DNA of 64,000 nt from PVC group bacterium (GTDB taxonomy: Bacteria; Auribacterota; Erginobacteria; Erginobacterales; PUNC01), in the NCBI GenBank assembly GCA_003551625.1, contig PUNC01000133.1:30013-94012 (forward strand), written 5' to 3'. The notes beneath the pieces were generated by a model. That model was given only the letters and a program-made list of their open reading frames with translations. It searched no databases and had not been told where the DNA came from. Position 1 is the stretch's first letter; each line of letters starts with the position of its first letter. Positions 22,519 to 32,094 of this stretch are shown piece by piece. The position numbers and the translations under genes were made by a program.

Positions 22519-23304
22519 TCACTTGCGGCGGATGTAGATGACCTTCTGGCGATTGCCGGGCCCCTCCTGCCGGCTGTCGATCTCGAAGAGATTGATCGCC
22601 CGGATCAGGGAGCTGAGCTTGGCGTAACCGTAGTTGCGGGAATCGAACGAGGGATGCTGGTTGGAGATCTTCGAGCCCACGCGGGCCAGCGGGGCCCAGC
22701 CGTCCTCCTCGGCCACCGCCTCGACCGCATCGGCGATCATCCCCGACAGTTTCTTGTCCTTCCGCAAAGCCTCGGCCCCCTTGCGCCTCCCCGCGGCCGA
22801 TTGCCGGGCGGCGGCGGCCTCGCCTTCCGGGGATTTCCGGAGGATGTCGTTGTAGATGAACTTGTCGCAGGCGCTGACGAAGGCGGCCGGGGTCTTCTTC
22901 TCGCCGAAACCGTAAACCGTCAACCCCTGTTCGCGGATCCGGGAGGCCAGCCGGGTGAAGTCGCTGTCGCTGGTGACCAGGCAGAAACCGTCGAACCGGC
23001 CGGTGTAGAGCAGGTCCATCGCGTCGATGATCATCGCGCTGTCGGTGGCGTTCTTGCCGACGGTGTGGCGGAACTGCTGGATGGGATGAATGGCGAAGCT
23101 GGCCAGCACCTTCTTCCAGCTGCTTAAGTTGGTCGATGTCCAGTCGCCGTAGATCCGCTTGACCGTCGCGGTGCCGTATTTCGAGATCTCCGCCACCAGG
23201 GCGTCGATAATCGTGGGCGTGGTGTTGTCGGCGTCGATCAGGACCGCCAGCCTCTTCTCGGCAGCATTTCTCGCGTCCATAAACTCCCTCTCATCTGGGG
23301 TCAA
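22519..23304 (-). CDS. NYN-domain ribonuclease with C-terminal OST-HTH/LOTUS domain
   Basis: LAVLIDADN...DSAMIIDAMDL...FCLVTSDSDF (NYN/PIN-like acidic residues). C-terminal OST-HTH (GWAPLARVGSKISNQHPSFDSRNYGYAKLSSLI). Confidence 0.8.
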   Translation of the reverse strand: MTPDEREFMDARNAAEKRLAVLIDADNTTPTIIDALVAEISKYGTATVKRIYGDWTSTNLSSWKKVLASFAIHPIQQFRHTVGKNATDSAMIIDAMDLLYTGRFDGFCLVTSDSDFTRLASRIREQGLTVYGFGEKKTPAAFVSACDKFIYNDILRKSPEGEAAAARQSAAGRRKGAEALRKDKKLSGMIADAVEAVAEEDGWAPLARVGSKISNQHPSFDSRNYGYAKLSSLIRAINLFEIDSRQEGPGNRQKVIYIRRK

Positions 23305-23324
23305 ATCTTTACTCTTGACTTTAC
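23297..23324. repeat. REP-like 28-bp element copy A (GGGGTCAAATCTTTACTCTTGACTTTAC)
   Basis: Exact reverse complement of copy B at 24342-24369. Together they bracket the RAYT gene. Confidence 0.75.
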
Positions 23325-24317
23325 CTTATTCAGTTTCGCCAGCTTCTCCTCAAATTCCCTCCGCCGGGAGGAATCCTCCTCCAATTGCCGCCGAAACCGC
23401 TTTCTCGACACGCTGACCGCGCTGTAATCTATACCGCCCATCAACTCTCCGATCTCAGCCTGGGTTATCGGACAGAAGCGATAAAGCAACTCCATCAGCA
23501 TTGACCGCTCGACGGTCCTCCTTCCTCTCCGGCAGAGCTCGGTCCGGGACGTCCCGATCATCCGGCAATACCTTTCTATCAACTCCCCGGGCTCGTACTC
23601 CGAATGCAATATTCTGACCGCCGGCTGTTCCCGGGGAGAAACCCCGCGGTCAAAACCGCGGGACTTAATCCGGTTGATGAACTCCTCCTCGCCGACAACC
23701 CCATGGCCCCGGGCCAGGGCCAGAGGATTGGCCAAACCCTCGTCGAGACCGCGAGCGACAAACCGGCAGTAGGCCCTTCTTCCCCCGGCATTATCCCCGC
23801 CCAGGTAATTGAGCAGAACCCGGTAATCGATAAATCCTTTACGCCTGGCGACCGAGCAATACCCCGGAAGACTGCTCCATTGGTATCTCAAAAGGTCGCG
23901 CCAGGCGTCGAAAGCGGCTTCCGTCCCCGCCCCGGCAGCCCGTGCCGGATTCAGATGCACGTAGCGGGAAACCTCCAGCAGGTAACTGTCGGCGTCGATC
24001 AGGAACGCCTTATATCTGCCCTGGTAGAGATGTCCCACCCGTTTGTGCCGGTGATTGAAAGCGCCGGTGTAGGAGACGTTAAAGTGGCGCATGAACTCCG
24101 GAAGGTTCCCCCGGGGCGTCTTCACCAACAGGTGGAAGTGATTGGGCATACAGACATAGGCCAGCAGCGATACGCCGTAAATTTCGGTCGACAGGGCGAG
24201 TTTCTTCAGAAATATTTCCCGGTCCCGCGGGTCGCGAAAAATCTTCTTCTTCTCGTTACCCCGGCAGGTGATATGATAGCAGGCGCCGGGATAGAGAATT
24301 CTTAAGGGTCTGGCCAT
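23301..24317 (-). CDS. IS200-like Y1 tyrosine transposase, REP-associated (RAYT), with C-terminal DnaA-like HTH extension
   Basis: HuH motif PNHFHLLV and catalytic Tyr context HLYQGRYKAF. 338 aa. Flanked by inverted REP-like repeats. Stop overlaps the NYN gene start by 4 nt. Confidence 0.8.
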   Translation of the reverse strand: MARPLRILYPGACYHITCRGNEKKKIFRDPRDREIFLKKLALSTEIYGVSLLAYVCMPNHFHLLVKTPRGNLPEFMRHFNVSYTGAFNHRHKRVGHLYQGRYKAFLIDADSYLLEVSRYVHLNPARAAGAGTEAAFDAWRDLLRYQWSSLPGYCSVARRKGFIDYRVLLNYLGGDNAGGRRAYCRFVARGLDEGLANPLALARGHGVVGEEEFINRIKSRGFDRGVSPREQPAVRILHSEYEPGELIERYCRMIGTSRTELCRRGRRTVERSMLMELLYRFCPITQAEIGELMGGIDYSAVSVSRKRFRRQLEEDSSRRREFEEKLAKLNKVKSRVKI

Positions 24318-25152: not shown

Positions 25153-26052
25153 ATGCGAATCGGCTACCCCTGCATCAACCGTTCCCTCGGCTGCACCGCC
25201 GGCCGGACCTTCCGGCTCGCCTCCTATTCGCGACGGCGGATGGCCGAGACGGTCGCACTCAATCTTGACTGCCTGGAGAAAATCCTGGCCTTCAACGCCG
25301 TCAACGGCCTGCTCTTCTTCCGGATAAGCTCCGACCTGATTCCCTTCGCCTCGCACCCGGTCTGCCGTTTTCCCTGGGCCGAACGCTTCGGCGAAAGGCT
25401 GCGGGCGATCGGGCGGTTGATTAAGAAACAGGGCTTCCGGATCTCGATGCACCCCGACCAGTTCACCCTGATCAACTCACCCGACGGGGGAGTCTTCAAC
25501 CGCTCGGCGGCGGAGCTGGAATACCACTGCCGGGTGCTGGACCTGATGGGGCTGGACCGGACGGCGCGGGTCCAGATCCACGTGGGAGGCGTCTACGGAG
25601 ACCGGGAAACGAGCATGAAAAGATTCGTCGAGCGCTTCCGGAGCCTTGACCGCGCCGTCCGCCGGCGGCTGACGATCGAGAACGACGAGCGGCTCTATCC
25701 CGTCGCCGACTGTCTGGCGCTCTCGCGCGCGACCGGCGTCCCGGTCCTCTTCGACCTCTTCCACCACCGCCTCAACCACCGGCGCGAGAGCGCGGCCGAC
25801 GCCCTGGACGCCTGCGCCGCCACCTGGCCCGCGGCCGCCGGGATCCCGATGGTCGACTACTCGTCGCAGCAACCGGGGGGAAGACCGGGAAAACACGCCG
25901 AGAGCATCGACACCTCCCACTTCAAACGGTTCCTCCGGGCGACGCGGGGAATTGATTTCGACGTGATGCTCGAGATCAAGGACAAGGAGAAAAGCGCTCT
26001 CGCCGCCCTGGCGGCGGCGGGACGCGACCGGCGGCTGGCGATGGGGGTTTGA
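25153..26052 (+). CDS. uvdE: UV DNA damage endonuclease UvdE
   Basis: MRIGYPCINRSLGC... N-terminus and TIM-barrel UVDE pattern (HVGGVYGDRE, LTIENDE). Confidence 0.85.
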   Translation: MRIGYPCINRSLGCTAGRTFRLASYSRRRMAETVALNLDCLEKILAFNAVNGLLFFRISSDLIPFASHPVCRFPWAERFGERLRAIGRLIKKQGFRISMHPDQFTLINSPDGGVFNRSAAELEYHCRVLDLMGLDRTARVQIHVGGVYGDRETSMKRFVERFRSLDRAVRRRLTIENDERLYPVADCLALSRATGVPVLFDLFHHRLNHRRESAADALDACAATWPAAAGIPMVDYSSQQPGGRPGKHAESIDTSHFKRFLRATRGIDFDVMLEIKDKEKSALAALAAAGRDRRLAMGV

Positions 26053-26128
26053 TGTTGCCAAAACCCGAACCGATTCACCGACCGGATAAACGCCGCCAAT
26101 TAAATATGATAAGATAAAAAGGCTTTTC

Positions 26129-26216
26129 GGGAGAGGTGCCGGAGTGGTTGAACGGGGCGGTCTTGAAAACCGTTGTCCGCGTGAGCGGACCGTGGGTTCG
26201 AATCCCACCCTCTCCG
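26129..26216 (+). tRNA. tRNA-Ser (anticodon UGA), type II with long variable arm
   Basis: Hand-folded: acceptor GGAGAGG/CCTCTCC, anticodon loop CTTGAAA, variable arm GTCCGCGTGAGCGGAC, T-arm CGTGGGTTCGAATCCCACC. No encoded CCA. Confidence 0.9.
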
Positions 26217-26219
26217 TAT
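26201..26219 (+). repeat. direct repeat copy 1 (tRNA-Ser 3' end, AATCCCACCCTCTCCGTAT)
   Basis: Identical 19-mer recurs at 26337-26355. Confidence 0.8.
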
Positions 26220-26336
26220 CACAATGCGAAGCATTGGGAGACGGCGGCCGCGCAGCGGCGGCTCTCCCGGAGGGAGAGAGAGGTGGGATGTGAGACCGCC
26301 GTCAGGCGGCGAACCCGAAGGGATGACGGAGTCATC

Positions 26337-26355
26337 AATCCCACCCTCTCCGTAT
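26337..26355 (+). repeat. direct repeat copy 2 of tRNA-Ser 3' end (att-like scar)
   Basis: Exact 19-bp duplicate lying 117 bp downstream of the tRNA. Confidence 0.8.
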
Positions 26356-26379
26356 AAATTTTGCCAGGGCAAAATTTAT
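26354..26379. other. AT-rich near-perfect palindrome ATAAATTTTGCCAGGGCAAAATTTAT (11-12-bp arms)
   Basis: Abuts DR copy 2 and lies 40 nt beyond the serS stop. Candidate bidirectional terminator or recombination core. Confidence 0.4.
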
Positions 26380-26418
26380 GGAAAGAAATTCGGATAAAGA
26401 ACTATTAGTCCGCGCTGC

Positions 26419-27696
26419 TTACAAGGGGGCGGAGAGCGTGTCGCGGCCGTGGAGGTAGGGGCGCAGGGCCGCGGGAATCTCCACGGTTCCGTCGGAGCGC
26501 TGGTAATTCTCCAGCAGGGCGACGATGGTCCGGGGCAGCGCCAGCCCGGAAGCGTTGAGGGTGTGGGGATGTCTTACCTTGCCGGCGCCGTCGCGGAAAC
26601 GGATGTCGGAGCGGCGGGCCTGGAAGTCGGCGAAGTTTGAACAGGAGGAGACCTCCAGCCATTCGTTCTGCCCGGGCGCCCAGGCCTCGATGTCGTAACA
26701 CCTGGCGGAGGCGAAACTCAGGTCGGAAGCGGGCAGCTCGATCACCCGGTAAGGAATCTTGAGAATCGCCAGAACCTTCTCCGCGTCGGCCAGCAGGCTC
26801 TCCAGCTCCCGCCAGGATTCCTCGGGGCGGGTGAACTTAACCAGCTCTACCTTGTCGAACTGGTGGAGACGGATCAGCCCCCGGGTATCCTTCCCGTAGG
26901 AGCCGGCCTCCCGCCGGAAGCAGGCGGTGACGGCGACCAGGCGAAGGGGCAGCTCGGGGTCTTCCAGGATCTCCCCGCGGTAGAGATTGGTCAGCGGCAC
27001 CTCGCCGGTAGGGATGAGGAAGAGGTCCTCCCGGTCGAGGTGGTACATATCGTCCTCCAGCTTGGGGAGCTGACCGGTGCCGACCAGGCAATCGCGGGAG
27101 CAGAGGACCGGCGGCGAGATCTCAAGGTAGCCGTGCTCGGAGGTGTGCAGGTCGAGCATAAAGTTGACCAGGGCGCGGGAGAGCAGCGCGCCGTCCCCCT
27201 TCAGGAGGGGGAAATTGCTCCCGCTGATCCGGGCCGCCCGGGGCAGGTCGGCCAGCTGGAGCGTATCGACGATTTCAAGGTGATCGCGGGGGGAGAAATC
27301 GAAATCGCGGACGGCCCCCTCTTCCCTGACCAGCCGGAACGGCTCCCGCTCCGTTCCGTCCGGAACGTCCGGGTGGGGAATGTTCGGGACGCGCAGAAGC
27401 AGCCGTCCCAGTTCTTCCTCGACCTCCTTGAGATCCCCGTCCAGGGAGCGGATCCGGCCGGAAAGCTCCTTCATCTCCGCCATCCGCGCCGAGCCTTCCT
27501 CCCCTCGCTTCTTCGCTTCCCCGATCTCCCGGGAGGCGGCGTTGCGGACGCGCTTGAGTTCCTCGGCCCGGGAGAGGAACTCCCGGCGTCGGGCGTCCAG
27601 CTTCAGGATTCCGTCCAGATCCGCTTCCATCCTCCGGGCGTTCAGGGCGGCGCGAACCGTCTCCGGATTCTCTCTAATGTATTTAAGATCGAGCAT
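26419..27696 (-). CDS. serS: seryl-tRNA synthetase
   Basis: MLDLKYIRENPETVRAAL... N-terminal coiled-coil arm plus class II core motifs. Confidence 0.95.
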   Translation of the reverse strand: MLDLKYIRENPETVRAALNARRMEADLDGILKLDARRREFLSRAEELKRVRNAASREIGEAKKRGEEGSARMAEMKELSGRIRSLDGDLKEVEEELGRLLLRVPNIPHPDVPDGTEREPFRLVREEGAVRDFDFSPRDHLEIVDTLQLADLPRAARISGSNFPLLKGDGALLSRALVNFMLDLHTSEHGYLEISPPVLCSRDCLVGTGQLPKLEDDMYHLDREDLFLIPTGEVPLTNLYRGEILEDPELPLRLVAVTACFRREAGSYGKDTRGLIRLHQFDKVELVKFTRPEESWRELESLLADAEKVLAILKIPYRVIELPASDLSFASARCYDIEAWAPGQNEWLEVSSCSNFADFQARRSDIRFRDGAGKVRHPHTLNASGLALPRTIVALLENYQRSDGTVEIPAALRPYLHGRDTLSAPL

Positions 27697-27699
27697 ATT

Positions 27700-29166
27700 T
27701 CACCCCTTCATTACGCAGATCGGCTTGAGGCGGGCGACCTTGCGGGAGATGCCGGCGCCGTGGACCACCTCGACGACCCGGGAGACGTCCTTGTAGGCGT
27801 CGGGGGCCTCCTCGCCCAGGGTGCGAAGACTTTTCGCCATCACGCTGATGCCGCGCGCGCCCAGCCGGTCCACCAGGTCCCGCCCCCGGGTCAGCTTGAG
27901 GGCGGCGTGGCGGCTCATCAGTCGCCCGGCTCCGTGGCAGGTGCTCCCCCAGGTTTCCCGCATAGCCCCCTCGGTTCCGGCCAGGACGAAGGAGAACCTT
28001 CCCATATCCCCCGGAACGATCACGGGCTGGCCCACGGAGCGGTAGCGGCCGGGCAGCGCGGGGTGGCCGGCGGCGAAAGCCCGCGTGGCCCCCTTGCGAT
28101 GAACGCAGACCCTTCGACGGGAACCTTCGATCTCGTGCTCCTCGAACTTGGCAATGTTGTGGGCGACATCATAGACGAGATCAAGACCGAGCTGTTCGGC
28201 GCCCCGGCGGAAGACGGCCTCGAAAGCCTCCCGGACCCAGTGCATTATGATCTGGCGGTTGGCCCAGGCAAAGTTCGCCGAGCAGGCCATCGCCGCGAAA
28301 TACCGTTTCCCTTCCGGCGATTCGATCGGAGCGCAGGCCAGCTGGCGGTCCGGCAGCTCGATCCCGTAGCGATTTACCGCCTTCCCCATCACCTTGAGGT
28401 AGTCGTCGCAGACCTGGTGTCCCAGGCCCCGGGAGCCGCAGTGGATCATCACCGCGGCCATCCCCGGGGAAATCCCAAAGGCGGCGGCCGCGGACCCGTC
28501 GTAGATTTCGTCTACCTCCTGGACTTCCAGAAAGTGGTTCCCGGAGCCGAGCGTGCCGAGCTGGGGAGCGCCGCGCTGGAGCGCCCGATCGCTCACCGCC
28601 GCCGGGTCGGCCTCCTCGAGGCAGCCTTCCTCCTCGGTGACCGACAGATCCTCGGGCCGGCCGTATCCCTCGGCCACGGCCCATCTGCTTCCCCGGGTCA
28701 GGACCCGGGCGGCCTCCTTCCCCTTGACCCGTACCCGGCTCTTCGAACCGACCCCGCAGGGCACCCGGTTGAAGAGTTCGGCCAGAAGCTCATCGCGGAG
28801 ACGGCGACAATCGGAGGCGTCGATCCCGGTCCGCAGCAACCTGACCCCACAATTGATATCGTATCCAATTCCTCCGGGCGAGATCACGCCCCCCCGCGCG
28901 GGGTCGGTGGCGGCGACGCCGCCGATGGGGAAACCGTAGCCCCAGTGAATATCGGGCATAGCCAGGGAATACCTGACGATTCCGGGAAGGGCGGCCACGT
29001 TGGCCACCTGGACATAGGTCTTGTCCCGGGTCAGGTGCGGGAGCAGGGACGAATCGGCGTAGATCAGTCCCGGAACCCTCATCCCGGGCGCAAAGCTTTG
29101 CGGGATCCGCCAGCGCCAGTCGTCGATCCGTTCCAGAAAACCGAGGTTCCGCTGTTCGTCGCTCAT
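27700..29166 (-). CDS. rtcB: RNA-splicing ligase RtcB (3'-phosphate/5'-hydroxy RNA ligase)
   Basis: DINCGVRLL, HxGSRGLGHQV, STCHGAGR signature motifs. Confidence 0.9.
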   Translation of the reverse strand: MSDEQRNLGFLERIDDWRWRIPQSFAPGMRVPGLIYADSSLLPHLTRDKTYVQVANVAALPGIVRYSLAMPDIHWGYGFPIGGVAATDPARGGVISPGGIGYDINCGVRLLRTGIDASDCRRLRDELLAELFNRVPCGVGSKSRVRVKGKEAARVLTRGSRWAVAEGYGRPEDLSVTEEEGCLEEADPAAVSDRALQRGAPQLGTLGSGNHFLEVQEVDEIYDGSAAAAFGISPGMAAVMIHCGSRGLGHQVCDDYLKVMGKAVNRYGIELPDRQLACAPIESPEGKRYFAAMACSANFAWANRQIIMHWVREAFEAVFRRGAEQLGLDLVYDVAHNIAKFEEHEIEGSRRRVCVHRKGATRAFAAGHPALPGRYRSVGQPVIVPGDMGRFSFVLAGTEGAMRETWGSTCHGAGRLMSRHAALKLTRGRDLVDRLGARGISVMAKSLRTLGEEAPDAYKDVSRVVEVVHGAGISRKVARLKPICVMKG

Positions 29167-29217
29167 AGATATAAGAGGTTGAGTTCGCTTCGTCGCAATG
29201 ACAGAAAAGATCCGGAA

Positions 29218-29646
29218 TTACAAATCAAAGACCACCTTCGCCTCCCAACCGGCGGCGGTCCGGACGAGACGAAGGTCGTGGTAGGTGGCGGCCTTGATGG
29301 CGGGGCCGACGGCCCGGCGGGCGAAGTCCAGACCGGCCCCGGATATCTCCGCCTTCAGCCGGCGGCGGCCGAAAAGACGGAAACGGTAGCGGTCGTACTT
29401 GACACCCTCGACCTCCAGGTAGTAGAGGACCTCGTTGAGCCAGGCCACCAGGAGTTCCTCCCGGCCCGCCGCTTCCAGGTCCACCACCCGGGTCGCCCGG
29501 CGCCCCCGGGCGGGTCCGGGGACGACGTAATCGAGCGTGGAACGGGCGGCGGCGGCAAAAAGTTCCTTCAGGGTACCGGACCGGAATGTCAATTCCAGGT
29601 CGGCCGAATGCGGGCCGACACTGAAATCGCCGCCGGAGGTGGGCAT
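29218..29646 (-). CDS. archease (RtcB activator)
   Basis: N-terminal HSADLEL (HTAD-like) and C-terminal KAATYHDL motifs. About 140 aa, immediately downstream of rtcB. Confidence 0.8.
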   Translation of the reverse strand: MPTSGGDFSVGPHSADLELTFRSGTLKELFAAAARSTLDYVVPGPARGRRATRVVDLEAAGREELLVAWLNEVLYYLEVEGVKYDRYRFRLFGRRRLKAEISGAGLDFARRAVGPAIKAATYHDLRLVRTAAGWEAKVVFDL

Positions 29647-29649
29647 CCC

Positions 29650-32094
29650 CTACTCCCCGGCTTCCCCGCCCACGACTTCTATCACCTTCCCCACCGATAC
29701 CAGGCTGTCTTCGGAACTGAGATTGATCAGACGCACTCCCTGGGTCACCCGGCCGATGGTTCTGATCTCGGAGACCTCGAGACGGATCATCTTGCCGCCG
29801 GCGGTGATCATCATAATCTCGTCGACGTCCTCCACCGTCTCGGCGCCGACCACGTCGCCGGTCTTGGCCCCGGTGCGCAGGGTGATCAACCCGCTGCCGC
29901 CCCGTCCCTGGACCCGGTACTGGTCAAAACCGGTTCGCTTGCCGTAACCGTTCCCGGAGACGACCAGCAGGGTCTGATCGTCGGCGACCTTCTTCATCGC
30001 CACCACCGAATCGTCCTTGCCCAGCCGGATCCCCCGAACCCCGTACGCGGGACGGCCCATCGCCCTCAAGTCGGCCTCGTGGAACCTGATCGACTTGCCC
30101 TTGACCGTAACCAGGAGAATGTCGGAGGCGCCCCCGGTAAGCTCGGCGCCGATGATGCGGTCGTCGGGATTGATGCCCATCGCCACGATCCCCCCGGCCC
30201 GGGGCCGGCTGAAGTTGGAGAGAGGAGTCTTCTTGACCACCCCCTTCCGCGTGGCCATTACCACGAACCTTTCCCCGTCGAAGTTACGGACCCGGATGAC
30301 GGCGGCGATCTTGTCTTCCCCGGAGATCTCAAGCACGTTGGCGATCGAACGGCCCTGGGAGGTCCGGGAACCCTGGGGAATCTGGTAAACCTTGAGCCAG
30401 TGGACCCGGCCGTTCTCGGTGAAGAAGAGTAGATAATCGTGGGTGGAAGCCGTAAACAGCCGCTCGACGTAATCTTCTTCCCGGACGGCCATTCCCGCCA
30501 CTCCCTTGCCTCCCCGCCGCTGCGACTTGTAGGTGGTCATCGGCACCCGCTTGATGTAGCCCCGGTGGCTGATCGTGATCAGGGCGCCGACGTCGGCGAT
30601 CATATCCTCGATCTTGAACTCCCCCTCCTCGGGGACGATGTCGGTTCTCCGGCCGTCGCCGTATTTTTCCACCAGCTCCCGGAGATCATCTTTTATCAGC
30701 CCCAGCACCATCTGCTCGCTATCCAAGATGGACTGGAGGTAAGCGATCCGCTTGATAAGTTCCCGGTACTCGTCTTCGATCTTCTTCCCCTCGAGATTGG
30801 TCAACTGATACAGGCGCATATCCAGAATCGCGTCGGCCTGGACGTCGCTGAGTTTGAGCCGCTTGATCAGATTGCCCTTGGCCTCCTCCCGGTTGGCCGA
30901 GGACTTGATGATCTTGATCACCTCATCGATATGCTTAAGGGCGATCTTGAACCCTTCCAGGATGTGGGCGCGTTTCTCGGCCAGGTCGAGCTCGAACCGG
31001 GTTCTCCGGAGGATCACCTCCTTGCGGTGTTCGACGAAGCACCGGATCAGCCCCTTGAGGTTCATCACCCGGGGCCGGCCGTGGTCGAGACCGAGAAGGA
31101 TCACCCCGAAGGTCTGCCGCAGCTGGGTCTTGCTGTAAAGCTGATTGGTGATGACCTTGGCCACCTCCCCCCGCTTGAGCTCGACCACGATCCGCATCCC
31201 CTCCCGGTCGGACTCGTCGCGGAGATCGCTGATACCGGTTATCTTCTTGTCGTTGACCAGCGAGGCGATCTCTCCCAGGAGATTGGTCTTGTTGACCGAG
31301 TAGGGGATCTCGCTGATGATCAGCGCCTCCTTGCCGCCTTTGAGCGGCTCCACTCCAATCCGCCCCTGAACCTTGATCCGTCCCCGGCCGGTGGAATAGG
31401 CCCGGGTTATCTCGGAGGTGCCGGTGATGATGCCCCCGGTCGGAAAATCCGGTCCCGGCAGGACCTTCATCAGCTCCTCGACCGTCACTTCCGGGTCGTC
31501 GATCCAGAGGTTTATCGCCGCGGCCACTTCGCCCAGGTTGTGGGGGGGGATATTGGTTGCCATCCCGACGGCGATCCCGGATCCGCCGTTGCAGAGAAGG
31601 TTGGGGAATTTCCCGGGAAGAACCACCGGTTCGTTCCGGGTCTCGTCGTAATTGGGGATAAAATCGACCGTATCTTTCTTCAGGTCGAGCAGCATTTCCA
31701 TCGCCAGCGGGGTGAGGCGGGCTTCGGTGTAACGCATCGCGGCGGGCGGATCGCCGTCGATCGATCCGAAGTTTCCCTGCCCCTGAACGAGCGGGTATCG
31801 CAGGTTGAAGTCCTGGGCCATTCGCACCAGCGTGGGATAGACGACCGCCTCGCCGTGAGGATGGTAGTTTCCGGAGGTGTCGCCGCAGATCTTGGCGCAC
31901 TTGCGGAAGGCGCTTTGCGGGGAGAGACCGAGGTCGTTCATCGCCACCAGGATGCGGCGCTGGGAAGGCTTGAGACCGTCGCGGGCATCGGGCAGGGCGC
32001 GGGAGACGATCACGCTCATCGCGTAACTCAAATACGATTCGCGCATTTCGTCCTTGATGTCGCGGTCGATTACGGTGTCGTTGCGGGCGTACAT
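29650..32094 (-). CDS. gyrA: DNA gyrase subunit A
   Basis: [11 protein letters not shown], active-site Tyr context [11 protein letters not shown]-terminal beta-pinwheel repeats. Directly downstream of gyrB. Confidence 0.93.

Follow-up and report, generated by a model that had tools for sequence, protein, structure and literature searches.

A probable short-form repeat unit of the RtT type behind a tRNA-Ser(UGA) gene in an uncultivated high-GC bacterium

The RtT repeat has been known since the late 1970s to 1990s as an oddity of the E. coli tyrT operon, where only weak evidence connects it with amino-acid starvation and the stringent response. E. coli has six occurrences of the 19-nt 3′ end of tRNA-Tyr, AATCCTTCCCCCACCACCA: one each in tyrT and tyrV, one in the interval and three farther downstream, with a spacing of 175/178 nt in which the three downstream copies stand at 178 nt. 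This 19-mer begins at tRNA position 58. Annotated rttR runs from 7 nt past tyrV exactly to the CCA of the copy that comes next. E. coli rttR has been detected as an RNA and RtT-family RNAs adjoin Asn and Lys tRNA genes in Pasteurellaceae (PMC4986893), while members of the family have been described as freed from tRNA operon transcripts and have been linked to amino-acid limitation (PMC4986893; bioRxiv 10.1101/2024.07.17.603846). The Rfam model of RtT, RF00391, was built from enterobacterial tyrT sequences and has a gathering threshold of 45 bits. Two other described systems resemble parts of the locus studied here. The att sites of tyrosine integrases in tRNA genes are direct repeats of a tRNA 3′ segment beginning in the T loop, as is the repeat described below, and the Xanthomonas small RNA sX4 (RF02223) is modelled as tRNA-Ser(CGA) plus a 60-nt trailer ending in GGGGGGUGAGA, which is paired to the CCCCCC of the tRNA 3′ strand. 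For sX4 a Northern signal of 280–300 nt was reported, compared with 156 nt expected (PMC3300014).

The present study analyzes a 64-kb window, meaning the whole stretch of DNA examined, with a base composition of 62% G+C and a single tRNA gene, tRNA-Ser(UGA), at 26130–26216 on the plus strand (ARAGORN; Rfam tRNA model, 59.8 bits). CCA is not encoded, and TAT stands directly after the discriminator G26216. Positions 58–73 of the tRNA together with this TAT form a 19-mer, AATCCCACCCTCTCCGTAT, at 26201–26219 (plus strand), of which the first 16 nt are the 3′ part of the T loop, the 3′ strand of the T stem, the 3′ strand of the acceptor stem and the discriminator, and the last 3 nt are trailer. The same 19-mer recurs at 26337–26355 on the same strand with 19/19 identity, and these are its only two exact occurrences in the window. 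The preliminary description had claimed an exact 19-bp duplication of the tRNA 3′ end across a gap of 117 nt (26220–26336), and this was borne out by exact search and by shuffling, with no third site in the window even at up to three mismatches and 0 matches in 100 dinucleotide shuffles at the same tolerance. An assembly artefact is excluded for the duplicated tRNA end because an independently assembled Logan contig (L001, from SRR490150), compared by eye, reads identically from 26216 through the palindrome described below and into serS.

The 117 nt between the two copies fold with a z score of −5.7 relative to shuffled sequence. Together with the second copy they make up a repeat unit of 136 bp, present in the window as a single copy and composed of a spacer (26220–26272) and a core of 75–80 nt (26273–26352), both on the plus strand. 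The spacer, delimited by the minimum free energy fold, by alignment with a related contig and by its context in another (L083 and L129, below), contains two hairpins in that fold, CAATGC-GAA-GCATTG at 26222–26236 and GGGAGA...TCTCCC at 26236–26268, the second of which had already been picked out inside the bracketed segment. The core, identified by folding and by the two covariance models introduced below, is a short-form RtT-like structure in which a terminal helix, P1, encloses three hairpins. The 5′ arm of P1, GAGAG-A-GGTGGGAT at 26276–26289 (fold and first model), was overlooked in the preliminary description; it is complementary, with one bulged A, to the second copy of the tRNA end (ATCCCACC-CTCTC), giving the pairings GGTGGGAT/ATCCCACC and GAGAG/CTCTC. 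P1 thus takes its 3′ arm from the second copy, within which, on the model of E. coli rttR, the mature RNA is predicted to end, at G26352. Inside P1 follow a junction, GTGAG, at 26290–26294 (canonical RtT has GAUGAGAAC in the Rfam consensus), a variable hairpin, ACCGCC-GTCA-GGCGGC, at 26295–26310 (fold and alignment), the P5 hairpin CCC-GAA-GGG at 26314–26322 (RtT consensus and models), which is the best-conserved motif of the RtT family, and the P6 hairpin ATGAC-GGA-GTCAT at 26323–26335 (fold and models), here without the flanking tandem G-A/A-G present in most family members.

Downstream of the unit lies serS, encoding seryl-tRNA synthetase, at 26419–27696 on the minus strand (Pfam), convergent with the tRNA and outside the element. 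Pfam searches of seven neighbouring ORFs identified UvdE, serS, RtcB, archease and GyrA. The best match of serS among species-representative genomes was 56% identical and came from a Kiritimatiellia MAG; in a large protein collection the nearest protein was P0002, 74% identical, and the next-nearest were about 62% identical, including that of Ca. Euphemobacter frigidus (Ca. Auribacterota, PVC group). A serS-based scan of genome contigs showed that serS followed by tRNA-Ser is a widespread synteny. The order gyrA-archease-rtcB-serS-tRNA-Ser (window 26419–32094, minus strand) is conserved in the clade, being found also in L083, L089, L090 and L092, and the tRNA with its RtT unit is inverted relative to serS in the window. 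The sole recombinase-like ORF nearby, 1.8 kb off and two genes upstream of the tRNA, encodes a 338-aa protein at 23301–24317 (minus strand) with an IS200-type Y1 transposase domain (PF01797, E 7e-13), and no connection between this ORF and the RtT-like element was found.

Comparison of related loci, which the preliminary description had proposed, revealed a difference in presence and absence. Contig L083, whose serS is 74% identical, carries tRNA-Ser(UGA) followed by a spacer and a core that resemble those of the window and by an exact second copy of 17 nt, although its tRNA lies downstream of serS in the same direction whereas that of the window is convergent. Alignment of the two loci is good from the tRNA up to where the second copy ends, and immediately beyond this point similarity is gone. 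Within the aligned region the variable hairpin is wholly different in sequence, ACCGCC-GTCA-GGCGGC in the window versus GGCAA-TTATTC-TTGCC in L083, with pairing kept. In the metagenomic contig L129 a core nearly identical to that of the window lies behind tRNA-Ser(CGA); the spacer 26220–26272, which is kept in L083, has its homologue CACGATGCAGAGCAGCGGGAAACGG in L129 after the second copy instead. Among more distant relatives the unit is absent from L089, which has no second copy, and from L090 and L091, which have none either and carry a homologous AT-rich palindrome directly 3′ of the tRNA. Because the palindrome of L090 and L091 directly follows the tRNA, the repeat unit is a discrete unit between the tRNA and an ancestral terminal hairpin, and in the lineages that carry it the unit is under constraint. 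A further arrangement occurs in L084 (GCA_964504435.1, 5796–5900), where tRNA-Ser(UGA) is followed by GTGGGTT, two hairpins and AAATCCCACC and then directly by an AT-rich palindrome; this structure matched neither covariance model and may be a relative reduced still further, with a copy of the T-stem strand alone. A duplication of another kind was seen in L090 (4269–4420) and L091 (GCA_963986675.1; serS 62% identical), in which a 37-nt duplicate of the 5′ half of tRNA-Ser(UGA), extending as far as the anticodon loop, precedes the intact tRNA gene by about 108 nt.

Elements of this kind were sought more widely with a pattern common to the window and L083, CCCGAAGGG-N(5-25)-CAATCCNNCCCTCTCC, in which the C before AATCC excludes true T loops, and a scan of a metagenome collection returned at least 120 contigs. 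Among the matches listed, every same-strand tRNA within 330 nt upstream was a tRNA-Ser (79/79), with the anticodons CGA (26), GGA (20), GCU (18) and UGA (15), and members with a visible upstream tRNA stood behind tRNA-Ser genes or in tandem, at least eight of the elements found lying directly behind another element. The 16-nt arm tracked the tRNA of its own locus: among the matches listed it was identical to that tRNA in 67 of 79 cases by count, compared with a mean of 34 and a maximum of 44 when arms and tRNAs were paired at random, and in 72 of 79 after five off-by-one ARAGORN ends had been corrected by eye, with the remaining seven differing by 1–2 nt. Spacing between the copies, that is, the repeat unit, had a median of 177 nt, and 101 of 125 copies ended in GCCA, again among the matches listed. 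Many members have a classical terminator directly 3′ of the tRNA and another 3′ of the copy.

Tandem arrays also contain short forms of 74–76 nt with the same three-hairpin layout, situated behind long forms (for example L121, 4233–4308), and these carry GTAATCC rather than CAATCC and so were not selected directly by the scan pattern. Such short forms were seen in L121, L142, L149, L167 and L208; where the copy is 76 nt long, its tRNA-derived 3′ arm occupies positions 58–76, as in a standard tRNA, and an alternative 7-bp pairing, GCGGGGA/UCUCCGC, would give an acceptor-like stem that includes the discriminator. Two larger analogues with cores of about 180 nt were observed in an Omnitrophota MAG (L056, JACPQZ010000038; 6161–6358 and 6721–6911), behind tRNA-Ser(GCU) and tRNA-Ser(CGA). 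Each of their 3′ arms copies its own tRNA and their 5′ arms perfectly complement a 15-nt stretch of the tRNA 3′ end. Both trailers begin with the same 40 nt and differ in their interiors, where the changes are compensatory, and one of the two scored only 22.5 bits with the first covariance model. In L227 (minus strand, about 4050–3880 as oriented) the 5′ part of a tRNA-Ser(CGA) runs via GTGGGTTCGAA straight into an RtT body that ends in a tRNA-like 3′ arm, with no intact tRNA 3′ end between, and this looks like a deletion between the T arm of the tRNA and the GGGTTCGA motif of an RtT unit. That motif may itself represent the 5′ half of a T arm interrupted at position 57/58 by the RtT body.

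Folding canonical members one sequence at a time gives a five-way junction. Its helices are P1, between the 5′ arm and the tRNA-derived 3′ arm; P2, GAACCC/GGGUUC; P3, a further helix of the full-length core; P4, the variable hairpin; P5, CCC-GAA-GGG; and P6, a hairpin usually flanked by tandem G-A/A-G. RNAalifold on a raw MAFFT alignment of 47 members recovered only eight pairs, with the hairpins out of register, and for this reason the structure was written by hand and the members re-aligned to a covariance model. This model, R1, places the hand-written structure on the 47-sequence alignment of serine-linked members, and 130 matches were then re-aligned to it. In the resulting alignment, which is fitted to the model and whose pair counts therefore lean towards the structure as written, double changes were found in 32 of 39 pairs, 76% of cells were paired versus 35–48% when partners were slid by 1–3 columns, and none of the five measures was reached by any of 500 shuffles. 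Covariation was strongest in P3 and P6, and the outer half of P1 was paired in only about half of the members. G-U pairs were frequent across the 130 sequences, which favours an RNA encoded on the tRNA strand. A second model, R2, was built from six short forms of 74–76 nt that lack the scan pattern and adjoin long forms that have it.

The serine-linked elements and RtT recognize each other, each model matching the members of the other. R1 found the four RtT repeats of E. coli K-12 tyrT-tyrV at 49–56 bits (E 3e-8 to 1e-6), sites that score 133–137 bits under RF00391, and R2 found the E. coli repeats at 39–41 bits (E 1.4e-7 to 5.8e-7). In the other direction RF00391, applied to 13 loci, gave 46.5, 46.5 and 44.5 bits for three serine-linked members, two of which thus reached the 45-bit threshold, and 27–38 bits for others; it also matched L132 at 35 bits. 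The motif CCCGAAGGG was part of the scan pattern, yet it is also present in the independent Rfam consensus of RtT. On these sequence grounds we consider the serine-linked metagenomic family to be the RtT family.

The window itself scored lower. R1 aligned 26281–26355 with P1, P5 and P6 in place and P2 and P3 deleted, at 31.8 bits and an E-value of 1.6e-3 that is not independent, since the sequences used to train R1 were fetched in part with a pattern derived from the window. L083 scored 30.1 bits, and in 730 kb searched these two were the best matches after the E. coli repeats. With R2 the window gave 28.5 bits (E 3.5e-4), L083 28.3 bits (E 3.9e-4) and L129 23.7 bits (E 0.006), scores to be read against those of bare tRNA-Ser 3′ ends, for which R1 and R2 give as much as about 24 bits, leaving the window only 5–10 bits above. 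RF00391 gave no RtT match in 25900–26600 at E ≤ 10, and Rfam at the same cutoff returned on the window, apart from noise, only the tRNA and an sX4 match that was below threshold and owed to the tRNA.

It is the combination of context, 19-nt copy, shared motifs and layout, and moderate scores that places the window in the RtT kind. Like RtT, the unit lies immediately 3′ of a tRNA gene and on the same strand; it ends in an exact copy of the last 19 nt of that tRNA, from position 58; its 5′ arm pairs with this copy to form a terminal P1; and within P1 a junction of the GAUG(A/U)GA(A/G)AC type is followed by the CCC-GAA-GGG hairpin, by P6 as a second hairpin, and then by the 3′ arm. Unlike RtT, it has neither P2 (GAACCC/GGGUUC) nor P3, and because these are missing its core is 75–80 nt compared with about 120 nt; both helices are equally missing from the 74–76-nt short forms elsewhere, which match the window in length and three-hairpin architecture. 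Under RF00391 it stays below the 45-bit gathering threshold, around which the long serine-linked members fall (44.5–46.5 bits). The partner is tRNA-Ser(UGA) rather than tRNA-Tyr, the unit is 136 bp as opposed to 178 bp and is present once as opposed to in 3.14 tandem copies, and unlike in E. coli there is no encoded CCA and no tpr-like ORF. The host also differs, being an uncultivated high-GC bacterium whose serS is nearest to those of PVC-group and Ca. Auribacterota MAGs. The serine-linked elements of the metagenomes (L118–L237) share with the window the tRNA-Ser 3′ arm and the P1/P5/P6 layout, but long forms with P2 and P3 predominate among them, most have an encoded CCA and classical terminators at their flanks, and their short forms stand in tandem behind a long form whereas that of the window stands alone. 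We therefore read the locus, with a probability of roughly 0.8, as a tRNA-Ser(UGA) gene with a single short-form RtT-type repeat unit behind it, and so as a short-form, serine-linked, CCA-less and single-copy variant of the RtT kind in a distant lineage.

The sX4 model matched 26118–26279 of the window below threshold, at 44 bits compared with 70, as it did many loci of the family, and the score is due mostly to the tRNA itself. The reported Northern size is what a tRNA together with one RtT-like unit, about 180 nt long, would give, and by this analogy sX4 may be a truncated description of a member of an RtT-like family.

The palindrome, ATAAATTTTGCC-AG-GGCAAAATTTAT, occupies 26354–26379 and overlaps the final 2 nt of the second 19-nt copy; its stem is A/U-rich with GCC/GGC at the top, and homologous hairpins come after the tRNA in L090 and after the partial copy in L084. 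It had been described as AT-rich and near-perfect, and AT-rich it is, but it is in fact perfect, with two arms of 12 nt that are 100% complementary and 2 nt between them. The suggestion that it is a two-way terminator shared with the convergent serS fared unevenly, since its position is conserved in L084 and L090, but a scan of 25950–26500 for intrinsic terminators found no canonical site with a G+C-rich stem and a U tract. No promoter was found at the locus. A terminator common to the tRNA unit and serS is nevertheless plausible, the palindrome being probably the ancestral hairpin that closes the tRNA transcription unit and probably also ending serS here. 

An alternative explanation could be that the whole trailer is no more than a compound terminator, or a platform for processing, that serves the tRNA and serS and releases no RNA. 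The strongly structured trailer (z = −5.7), the conservation of a palindrome at the end of the unit, and the classical terminators that many family members carry after the tRNA and after the copy are all consistent with this. The explanation seems unlikely, however, because a terminator needs neither a copy of the tRNA end nor a conserved multi-helix core, because no canonical terminator was seen in 25950–26500, and because the homologous unit of E. coli yields the annotated and detected RNA rttR (PMC4986893).

It could also be supposed that the unit is a degenerate tandem duplicate of the tRNA-Ser gene, a functionless pseudogene whose 3′ end has been kept identical by gene conversion. A core of 75–80 nt with three hairpins in a terminal helix and a 3′ end in common with the tRNA is what such a duplicate might leave, and GGGTTCGA, as found in canonical members, is similar to a T arm's 5′ half. 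Yet the hairpin loops, at 3–4 nt, are unlike those of D or anticodon arms, the core was detected neither by ARAGORN nor by the Rfam tRNA model, and the conserved parts (CCCGAAGGG, the junctions and P6) are not those of a tRNA and are maintained across phyla and across Tyr and Ser partners. We regard a functionless duplicate as very unlikely here, whereas the family as a whole may have an ancient tRNA origin.

Mobile DNA had been among the suggestions of the preliminary description. On such a reading the repeats are what is left of attL and attR of an island that integrated at the tRNA and has decayed to 117 bp, or else they bracket a tiny insert mobilised by an integrase. The direct repeats do start in the T loop, like att cores of that type; relative to L090 the unit resembles an insertion between the tRNA and the terminator hairpin; and the different partial duplication of the tRNA 5′ half in L090 and L091 suggests that the locus is prone to recombination. 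Against this, the Pfam search of the seven neighbouring ORFs found no integrase within several kb of the repeats, and where an att site would bracket island DNA, the interior here is a conserved, structured RNA. Both the interior and the second copy persist, with compensatory changes, in L129 and in L083, the latter at 26% divergence in serS; the copy nearly always ends at the discriminator or at CCA in the family (101/125 in GCCA, among the matches listed); and the interior is a covarying RNA common to E. coli RtT. Viral contigs were searched as well. The only match of AATCCCACCCTCTCCGTAT in them was a tRNA-Ser(GCU) gene in a 392-kb contig with at least 10 tRNA genes, and not an attP, while a degenerate pattern for the 3′ arm returned 25 loci, none of which (0/25) held the element by R1. 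The att-scar reading is thus largely refuted and its remaining probability is very small.

A MITE-like insert or other dispersed repeat received no support within the 64 kb searched: blastn-short of 26100–26420 against the window returned nothing beyond the two copies and the palindrome, with no other copy of the element, and family members are seen essentially only behind tRNA genes. Readings as a hammerhead, as a YrlA/Y RNA (considered because RtcB is nearby), as a tmRNA-like RNA or as a T-loop intron had no Rfam support, and no Ro/TROVE gene was present among the ORFs examined.

To the anatomy, conservation, covariation and RtT homology described here an expected course of expression can be added, which we infer by analogy with E. 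coli rttR. The RtT-like unit would be transcribed together with tRNA-Ser(UGA), and a cut at the tRNA 3′ end would free the trailer. P1 and the discriminator would imitate an acceptor/T-arm stack and be recognised by the tRNA 3′-end machinery, with RNase Z and the CCA-adding enzyme, the latter invoked because the window encodes no CCA, defining the 3′ end of the trailer RNA at G26352. This would yield a stable RNA, about 135 nt long, whose 3′ end resembles that of tRNA-Ser, and our best guess, again by analogy, is that its cellular role is probably that of a mimic of the acceptor end of the cognate tRNA. A broader proposal, which we offer as speculation with rather long odds against it, is that RtT-type RNAs are ancient, bacteria-wide trailer RNAs mimicking the acceptor/T-arm end of their own tRNA, with the 75-nt three-hairpin short form as the minimal functional core. 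After RNase Z cleavage and CCA addition, this short form would present a tRNA-Ser-like 3′ end that enzymes reading acceptor ends, such as SerRS, ribosome-bound RelA, acceptor-end toxins or repair enzymes, could recognise, sequester or even charge. If that were true, the linkage with serS, rtcB and archease in the clade would be functional rather than coincidental.

The RtT kind is already known, and its breadth and its minimal form appear to be under-described. Its design, a structured trailer whose 3′ end copies the last 19 nt of its own tRNA, extends beyond enterobacteria to all four serine tRNA groups, to many environmental bacteria and to a lineage near the PVC group, and it exists also in a minimal form of 75 nt. 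For genome annotation it follows that duplicated tRNA 3′ ends are not always att sites. The broad comparative set, which combines covariation, forms of two lengths and a 3′ arm changing in step with the tRNA, makes the question of RtT function approachable.
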